A DNA stretch of 49,169 nt from the IMG/VR virus record IMGVR_UViG_2740892489_000001; one strand, written 5' to 3'. The notes under the pieces are model-generated. The model was given only the letters and a program-made list of their open reading frames with translations, was not told where the DNA came from and did no database searches. How positions within the stretch are numbered: position 1 is the first letter of the stretch; each line of letters starts with the position of its first letter. Of the stretch, positions 17,640 through 17,793 are shown in pieces. The position numbers and the translations under genes are program-made. This DNA comes from a virus (taxonomy: Duplodnaviria; Heunggongvirae; Uroviricota; Caudoviricetes).

Positions 17640-17715
17640 GCCGACTTAGCTCAGTAGGTAGAGCAACTGACTTGTAATCAGTAGGTCACCAGTTCGATTC
17701 CGGTAGTCGGCACCA
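17640..17715 (+). tRNA. tRNA-Thr (anticodon TGT)
   Basis: 76 nt cloverleaf folded by hand: acceptor GCCGACT/AGTCGGC, anticodon stem ACTGA/TCAGT, loop CTTGTAA, TTCGATT T-loop, CCA end. Confidence 0.9.
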
Positions 17716-17718
17716 TAT

Positions 17719-17793
17719 GCGGGTATCGTATAATGGCTATTACCTCAGCCTTCCAAGCTGATGATGCGGGTTTGATTCCCGCTACCCGCTCCA
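17719..17793 (+). tRNA. tRNA-Gly (anticodon TCC)
   Basis: 75 nt: acceptor GCGGGTA/TACCCGC, anticodon stem TCAGC/GCTGA, loop CTTCCAA, CCA end; 3 nt after tRNA-Thr. Confidence 0.9.

Follow-up and report, generated by a model that had tools for sequence, protein, structure and literature searches.

A tRNA-Thr and tRNA-Gly pair upstream of the lysis genes as probable codon-supply cargo of a Rac-family lambdoid prophage

Introduction

Lambdoid phages have long been known to carry tRNA genes between the Q antiterminator gene and their lysis or toxin genes. The Stx2 phage 933W carries ileZ, argN and argO between Q and its toxin genes, and its late region is reportedly laid out, after Plunkett and colleagues in 1999, as pR', tR', the tRNA genes and then stx. 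Among the tRNAs clustered in phage T4 are Thr-UGU, Gly-UCC, Arg-UCU, Ile-CAU and Leu-UAA. In phages SfI, Sf6, ST64T, PS3 and 21, a tRNA-Thr(UGU) gene was described 3' of Q, alongside a tRNA-Asn gene and together with a bias towards ACA codons (PMC3636060). The tRNA loci of the Stx2f phage phi467 have been mentioned as well (PMC5189129). Moreover, the small RNAs Pas and STnc100 were found to adjoin holin-lysozyme operons, and the tRNA hits near them were read as integration hot spots (bioRxiv 10.64898/2026.05.13.724894).

The window, by which we mean the whole stretch of 49,169 nucleotides that was analysed, carries a tRNA-Thr(UGU) and a tRNA-Gly(UCC) gene side by side. An earlier note, made from the sequence alone, had described them as a phage-borne pair of cloverleaf tRNAs lying between the Q-position genes and the holin, resembling the host genes thrU and glyT and directly adjacent, without the tyrosine tRNA that separates those two in the host operon. 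Here, we follow up these claims and weigh the possible roles of the pair.

Materials and methods

tRNA genes were called with ARAGORN and scored against the Rfam family RF00005 (gathering score 29 bits); other RNAs were searched with Rfam and protein domains with Pfam, and hairpins were folded and compared with shuffled sequences. Gene order was read from a RefSeq genome (L004) that is 99.9% identical to the window, and the assignments were confirmed in the window by Pfam. Codons were counted in the annotated genes of the same genome, which is free of the homopolymer errors of the window. The host codon baseline comprised 47 genes, namely 42 K-12 genes and 5 that flank the prophage, and it includes some highly expressed ones. 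Alleles were surveyed in 134 extracted copies of the cassette.

Results

The tRNA pair

ARAGORN called exactly two tRNA genes in the whole 49 kb window, tRNA-Thr and tRNA-Gly, with a 3-nt spacer between them (Table 1). Both were also scored by RF00005 far above chance, at 73.8 bits (E 2e-14) for tRNA-Thr and 62.9 bits (E 2e-11) for tRNA-Gly, compared with 73.8 bits for the host gene thrU and 64.9 bits for glyT. The claim of two cloverleaf tRNAs with TGT and TCC anticodons, 3 nt apart at 17640-17793, is therefore exact. The anticodon loops (CTTGTAA in tRNA-Thr, CTTCCAA in tRNA-Gly) are 7 nt long, with U33 and a purine at position 37, and the T loop reads TTCGATT in tRNA-Thr and TTTGATT in tRNA-Gly, the latter with U56 replacing the conserved C56. 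All the identity elements described in the literature for ThrRS were found in tRNA-Thr (G1:C72, C2:G71, G35 and U36), and all those for GlyRS in tRNA-Gly (U73, G1:C72, C2:G71, G3:C70, C35 and C36).

As a separate observation, a sigma-70-like sequence with 10 of 12 matches spans the junction of the two genes on the + strand (17707-17734, TCGGCA-16-TATAAT). The 3' end of tRNA-Thr supplies its -35 hexamer and the D arm of tRNA-Gly its -10 hexamer, and the scan found it at this junction in phage PhiR47_1 and at the locus L028 too. It could give rise to transcript starts inside tRNA-Gly, or it could be a coincidence.

Prophage context

The window represents a lambdoid prophage of the Rac family, inserted beside ttcA, which bears out the description of the pair as phage-borne. 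The tRNA genes lie 17.6 kb inside the prophage and are thus cargo and not an attachment site; the attachment-site reading was rejected on account of this internal position, the integrase gene lying beside ttcA. From the integrase end, the order in L004 is intR, xisR, rcbA, ralR, recT, recE, racC, kilR and sieB, followed by repressor-like HTH genes, ydaT, ydaV, a Q-family gene, a minus-strand moron and hok/sok, then by DUF1367, YbcO, DUF1133, the two tRNA genes, essD (a P21-type holin), rrrD, rzpD and trkG, and finally by the terminase, portal, capsid and tail genes. The pair starts 354 nt 3' of the stop of the DUF1133 gene (17286) and ends 781 nt 5' of the holin start (18575), so its claimed position between the Q-position genes and the holin stands. 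The DUF1133 gene has a weak Phage_antitermQ match in Pfam, and in a survey of Stx phages, HHpred identified DUF1133 as a Q antiterminator (PMC8136144).

Between 12000 and 24000, the window differs from L004 at 16 sites (for example 16909, 16944, 17834, 18176 and 20030), 15 insertions and 1 deletion. Since all 16 are single-base differences in the length of A/T runs, the window assembly has homopolymer errors. Two of them, at 16909 and 16944, split the DUF1133 gene into two ORFs in the window, where L004 has an intact CDS of 543 nt. Real frameshifts or pseudogenes in DUF1133 and in trkG (split at about 20030-20118) were accordingly rejected in favour of homopolymer-length assembly errors.

Some other features of the prophage are worth recording. 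Besides the DUF1133 gene, a second Q-type gene annotated as "antiterminator Q family" is found at 11892-12410. The two are separated by an AT-rich minus-strand moron, composed of a 1.4-kb hypothetical gene and a gene for a nucleoid-associated protein, and by the hok/sok locus, with an Rfam sok match at 15068-15242; in some relatives, IS421 is also inserted between the two Q-type genes. Two late-control regions seem to meet here in a mosaic junction. Directly after Rz/Rz1 comes trkG (19868-21344, 38% G+C), the K+ transporter moron of the K-12 Rac prophage. Rfam matches at gathering level were also obtained at 1558-1736 (RalA, the antitoxin sRNA of ralR) and 47696-47896 (IS009), and these, like sok, are typical prophage RNAs.

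Table 1. Positions of the tRNA pair and of the neighbouring or related features in the window
Feature	Position	Strand	Evidence or remarks
Integrase (intR)	14-1249		Beside ttcA
DUF1133 gene, Q-like, at the Q position	16744-17286	+	PF06576 on both halves, E 1.8e-35 and 3.9e-51
Hairpin resembling an intrinsic terminator, with T-rich tail	17366-17397	+	13-pair stem, dG -17.4 kcal/mol, z -5.0
AT-rich stretch (UP-like)	17420-17530		Precedes the promoter-like block
Promoter-like block	17533-17576	+	TTGACG-17-TGGAAT overlapping TTGCGA-16-TATCAT
Leader hairpin	17584-17636	+	dG -21 kcal/mol, z -3.2; 1/200 shuffles as stable
tRNA-Thr(UGU), gene anticodon TGT	17640-17715	+	ARAGORN and Rfam; CCA encoded
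Spacer TAT	17716-17718	+	3 nt
tRNA-Gly(UCC), gene anticodon TCC	17719-17793	+	ARAGORN and Rfam; CCA encoded
Non-coding stretch with sub-threshold STnc100 match	17991-18188	+	Rfam 22.1 bits against a gathering score of 47; ends in the terminator 18158-18186
Intrinsic terminator	18158-18186	+	dG -12.4 kcal/mol, z -4.6
P21-type (S21-type) holin, essD	18575-18790	+	Pfam PF04971; L004 annotation
Lysozyme, rrrD	18790-19287	+	Pfam PF00959; L004 annotation
Rz, rzpD	19284-19748	+	Pfam PF03245; L004 annotation
Rz1, embedded in Rz	19504-19689	+	

Relation to the host thrU-glyT operon

The likeness to thrU and glyT is closer than a resemblance: tRNA-Thr is identical to K-12 thrU over all 76 positions and tRNA-Gly matches glyT at 72 of 75, with the anticodon arms of both being identical to those of the host genes. 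The three changes in tRNA-Gly are C6 to U, G67 to A and, in the T loop, C56 to U. The first two turn C6:G67 into U6:A67, altering both sides of one acceptor-stem pair, and are therefore compensatory. The K-12 operon runs thrU-tyrU-glyT-thrT-tufB, with tyrU intervening as the earlier note had stated, and thrU is separated from glyT by tyrU and a 116-nt spacer. The cassette in the window has none of tyrU, thrT, tufB or this spacer. Homology of the flanks to the host operon was sought as a sign of direct capture, and none was found outside the mature tRNAs. In K-12, a T directly follows thrU and AT directly precedes glyT; thus, the TAT spacer could have been left behind by a 206-nt deletion that took out tyrU. 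The spacer is compatible with such a scar, but its three bases are too short to prove it, and we estimate that they would agree by chance in about 1 of 16 cases. Judged by the sequences of the mature tRNAs, the pair is derived from host thrU and glyT.

Distribution of the cassette

Among 5,426 complete E. coli genomes, 874 contain a 61-mer that spans the Thr-TAT-Gly junction, with 1,092 occurrences in all; every record among the matches listed has it annotated as tRNA-Thr and tRNA-Gly. The wider Thr-NNN-Gly junction pattern occurs in at least 120 IMG/VR viral contigs and in the GTDB representatives of E. coli and Shigella flexneri (3 copies each), E. ruysiae, Citrobacter braakii and Enterobacter hormaechei. 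Named phages with the cassette at the same place are vB_EcoS-683R6, phi467, PhiR47_1, JLK-2012 and SerU-LTIIb; in the Stx2f phage phi467 it lies between stx2f and S, in PhiR47_1 it belongs to a Met-Lys-Thr-Gly array and in JLK-2012 to an Asn-Thr-Gly array, and the LT-IIb phage carries two copies. As it is present in GenBank phage records and in RefSeq annotations, the cassette is already known. One further match, in a myxobacterial assembly (Corallococcus exercitus, NZ_RAVW01000911.1), lies on a contig of 423 bp covered at 0.67x and is almost certainly contamination.

Thr-Gly alone was the commonest array (63 loci), followed by Met(CAT)-Lys(TTT)-Thr-Gly (38) and Met(CAT)-Arg(TCT)-Thr-Gly (19), the additional tRNAs of sibling arrays abutting the cassette at 2-5 nt. 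A recognisable holin was present in 84 of the 93 cassettes with at least 1.5 kb downstream, on the same strand in all 84 and at a median distance of 687 nt. Homology to the window covers about 135 loci over the tRNAs, dropping sharply at the ends of the mature tRNAs to about 30 upstream and about 60 downstream, and the cassette is joined to at least 4 Q types and several holin types. Such a drop is the usual mark of a mosaic module. The adjacency of the two genes without tyrU is a fixed feature of this widespread phage module and not a peculiarity of the window.

Allelic variation

The 134 copies fall into 43 alleles, the commonest of which (33 copies) is exactly thrU, TAT and glyT. The TAT spacer is kept in 131 copies and the original anticodons in 130. 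At pair 6:67 of tRNA-Gly, C:G is found in 71 copies and U:A in 58, with 4 showing the wobble intermediate U:G, and pair 49:65 has gone from G:C to A:U in 3 copies. The frequent changes in tRNA-Thr concern positions 16 and 20 of the D loop, which vary among tRNAs. Changes that break a pair were observed only in alleles seen 1-4 times. Compensatory changes and wobble intermediates, the retention of the anticodons and the rarity of disruptive variants together indicate selection on tRNA function.

The U56 allele of tRNA-Gly in the window is rare, being found in 4 of the 134 copies, and its exact 61-mer in 17 of the 5,426 genomes. C56 normally pairs with G19 at the tRNA elbow, and the position is nearly universally conserved; the window copy of tRNA-Gly may therefore be slightly impaired. 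U56 might mildly affect folding or T-loop modification, and the RF00005 score of this copy is 2 bits below that of glyT.

Apart from these alleles, thrU-bodied tRNAs with other anticodons were encountered. One with a TCT (Arg) anticodon and a D-stem mismatch lies in the duplicated cassette of the LT-IIb phage (L003, 1122-1197), and others with a TTT (Lys) anticodon are found in the Met-Lys-Lys-Gly arrays of L077 and L120. They may represent anticodon shifts on a host-derived scaffold.

Codon usage and gene dosage

tRNA-Thr(UGU) serves ACA and other ACN codons, and tRNA-Gly(UCC) serves GGA and GGG. Of the Thr codons, ACA accounts for 26.8% in the prophage against 10.8% in the host baseline (2.5-fold), and of the Gly codons, GGA accounts for 23.5% and 8.5%, respectively (2.8-fold), fold-enrichments that are probably overstated because the baseline is small and includes highly expressed genes. 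The late genes, whose use of ACA and GGA the earlier note had proposed to check, are enriched in both codons by themselves, with odds ratios of 2.5 (p 1e-7) for ACA and 2.6 (p 1.5e-9) for GGA. The bias is stronger in early genes (odds ratio about 4), in morons and in trkG than in the late genes; trkG has the highest use among the gene groups of the prophage, with ACA at 32% of Thr and GGA at 31% of Gly codons. Ranked by enrichment among all codons, GGA comes 4th and ACA 6th, and clearly higher values were seen for AGA, AGG and ATA alone. The ACA/GGA bias is a general property of the AT-richer prophage that largely reflects its lower G+C content.

The prophage carries no tRNAs for AGA, AGG and ATA, its most over-used rare codons. 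In sibling phages, the Arg(TCT) tRNA that precedes Thr-Gly reads AGA, and the tRNA called as Met(CAT) would read ATA if it is of the Ile2 type. As for dosage, lysogens have two places that match these tRNAs, against one in the median E. coli genome; hence, the prophage doubles the gene dosage.

Flanking signals and the trailer

For the hairpin at 17366-17397, none of 200 shuffles folded equally well, and a nearly identical one lies upstream of the Met-Lys-Thr-Gly array of PhiR47_1. By its predicted fold, it could be tR' or mark where the early right operon ends. In the promoter-like block that follows, TTGCGA/TATCAT has 9 of 12 consensus matches, and across 19 distinct related upstream sequences, conservation of the block exceeds that of the AT-rich stretch in front of it. 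It is a possible dedicated promoter of the tRNA pair that would allow expression in the lysogen. Promoter-like matches are, however, no commoner here than in shuffled sequence, and for the same reason a consensus scan could not be used to assign the late promoter (pR') of the window. Moreover, any promoter is not part of the module, since sibling cassettes follow other tRNAs and different flanks. The leader hairpin ends 3 nt 5' of tRNA-Thr and is kept in relatives that share the DUF1133 upstream module; its modelled structure could act as a processing signal or form part of the late leader.

Downstream, folding against shuffles found no strong terminator directly 3' of tRNA-Gly. No credible ORF was found in 17794-18574, including the corresponding region of error-free relatives, and the sub-threshold STnc100 match was the only known RNA that Rfam returned there. 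A bona fide STnc100 occurs in L081 at 4124-4330 on the minus strand, in the same relative position after tRNA-Gly. In a pairwise comparison, the likeness of the window to true STnc100 is weak and confined to the CGGGAGGCACCCG hairpin and the terminator.

Discussion

The pair has the positional and anticodon features of lambdoid late-region cargo: it lies inside a prophage, between Q and the lysis genes, on the same strand, and with anticodons for over-used codons. We consider it probable that the two are functional tRNA genes acting as codon-supply cargo of a Rac-family lambdoid prophage, carried in the leader of its late operon. The host thrU-tyrU-glyT-thrT operon would have been reduced to thrU, TAT and glyT, and this compact cassette would then have passed from one enterobacterial lambdoid phage to another, always placed in the late (lysis-structural) operon leader. 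Transcription of the + strand would be supplied by the Q-antiterminated late transcript, by the promoter-like element at 17533-17576, or by both. By analogy, the simplest reading would be the classical lambdoid layout, with pR' and tR' after Q and the tRNAs read together with the lysis genes by Q-modified polymerase. RNase P would then cleave each 5' end and exonucleases would trim the 3-nt trailer to the encoded CCA; in E. coli operons with closely spaced tRNAs, RNase P and 3' exonucleases are known to act in this way. With their identity elements intact, the tRNAs would be charged by the host ThrRS and GlyRS. Gene dosage would thus be about doubled for the sole host genes of tRNA-Thr(UGU) and tRNA-Gly(UCC), and the extra dosage would serve ACA and GGA/GGG codons, with ACA and GGA being used 2.5 to 2.8 times more in the AT-richer prophage. 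Several findings stand against codon supply as the role of the pair, namely that the bias is not specific to the late genes and is stronger in early genes, morons and trkG, that the prophage has no tRNA for AGA, AGG or ATA, that promoter-like matches are as frequent in shuffles, and that the tRNA-Gly of the window has the rare U56 and is perhaps slightly impaired.

An alternative that we regard as unlikely is that the pair belongs to an autonomous stable-RNA operon active in the lysogen, reading from a promoter at about 17533-17576 through tRNA-Thr, tRNA-Gly and an STnc100-like RNA of about 200 nt to the terminator at 18158-18186. The operon would then serve mainly lysogenic conversion, through more rare-codon tRNA and possibly a trailer-derived sRNA, and not lytic growth. 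Two strong + strand terminator-like hairpins, 17366-17397 and 18158-18186, do flank the pair, and an UP-like AT-rich tract precedes TTGACG-17-TGGAAT and TATCAT in a block that is conserved among relatives. The lack of a strong terminator right after tRNA-Gly, the sub-threshold STnc100 match with a true STnc100 at the equivalent site of L081, and the top ACA/GGA use of AT-rich morons such as trkG point the same way. Yet the promoter-like matches occur at chance frequency, the promoter would lie outside the module, as other tRNAs or different flanks precede the sibling cassettes, and the STnc100 likeness amounts to 22 bits and, in pairwise comparison, to one hairpin. In addition, JLK-2012, which has a different Q gene, shows the order Q, TTGACA promoter, terminator, tRNA array and terminator, and the sequence of promoter, terminator, tRNAs and terminator fits Q-dependent read-through. 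The stronger form of this idea, in which the pair opens a constitutive stable-RNA unit and a trailer of about 400 nt yields an STnc100/PasD-like sRNA, seems to us more doubtful still. If it were true, the prophage would reprogram the lysogen through both the dosage of rare-codon tRNAs and a trans-acting sRNA made from the tRNA transcript, with two strong terminators insulating the unit from the early and lysis transcripts, and the tRNA hits beside Pas and STnc100 sRNAs in pathogenic E. coli would be cargo and not integration scars. The arrays surveyed (Thr-Gly, Met-Lys-Thr-Gly and others) sit 291-3124 nt 5' of holins, and our analysis suggests that many tRNA hits near Pas/STnc100 sRNAs are phage-borne cargo rather than integration sites.

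The cassette might also be a neutral hitch-hiker, a 154-bp island of near-identity persisting as a linker for the exchange of Q and lysis modules, for which the tRNAs themselves would not be needed. This near-identity is shared with the host chromosome and with many lambdoid phages, the homology to about 135 loci is limited to the mature tRNAs, and the variety of joined Q and holin types is what such a linker would show. We hold this to be highly improbable, however, given that stems are kept paired by compensatory and wobble changes, that 130 of 134 copies retain the anticodons and disruptive variants are rare, and that the anticodons correspond to over-used codons. Finally, an anti-defence supply, in which additional copies of the two tRNAs would shield the phage from host or competitor toxins acting on such tRNAs by cleavage or modification, recalls the Lys(UUU) and Arg(UCU) tRNAs of sibling arrays and the Thr-bodied tRNA with a UUU anticodon at two loci, the host Lys(UUU) and Arg(UCU) tRNAs being nuclease targets (PrrC, PARIS, colicin D), but it is barely plausible, as the anticodon stem-loops in the window equal those of the host, tRNA-Thr is identical throughout, and we know of no E. 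coli defence system directed against the anticodon loops of tRNA-Thr(UGU) or tRNA-Gly(UCC). The anti-defence reading was rejected, as was that of the pair as nuclease-evading tRNAs: with anticodon arms identical to thrU and glyT, they would not evade a nuclease that targets the host species.

Returning to codon-supply cargo, the pair is a correct identification of a common and annotated cargo module, which has little significance alone. Its use may rather lie in U6, U56 and A67, which distinguish the prophage tRNA-Gly from glyT and provide an allele-specific tag. Owing to these three differences, RNA-seq or tRNA-seq could show whether and when a temperate-phage tRNA is expressed, and expression of the tagged tRNA-Gly would put the codon-supply hypothesis for temperate phages to a simple test.

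Compared with described systems, the pair agrees with the tRNAs of 933W and the SfI group in lying downstream of Q and upstream of lysis or toxin genes on the same strand, and in having anticodons for codons that end in A and are seldom used by the host. SfI has the very same tRNA-Thr(UGU), with a documented ACA bias (PMC3636060). The window differs from these phages in carrying the Thr-Gly pair only and in having a Q-position gene of the DUF1133 type, and its sibling loci combine Met(CAT)-Arg(TCT) with Thr-Gly. The closest counterparts are the cassettes of phi467, vB_EcoS-683R6, PhiR47_1, JLK-2012, SerU-LTIIb and RefSeq E. coli genomes, which share the same tRNAs, the TAT spacer and the position before the holin; in vB_EcoS-683R6, a region of 801 bp is 91.6% identical to the window, and the DUF1367-YbcO-DUF1133 ... 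S-R-Rz-trkG context is common as well. What sets the window apart from these deposited cassettes is the rare U56 allele of its tRNA-Gly. With the K-12 thrU-tyrU-glyT-thrT-tufB operon, the mature tRNAs are alike, whereas tyrU, thrT, tufB, the flanks and the promoter context differ. The anticodon set of the T4 cluster parallels that of the window and its sibling arrays, being directed at the A-ending codons of an AT-richer E. coli phage; however, the tRNAs of T4 have diverged from those of the host, whereas those of the window are recent, near-identical host copies in a temperate phage.
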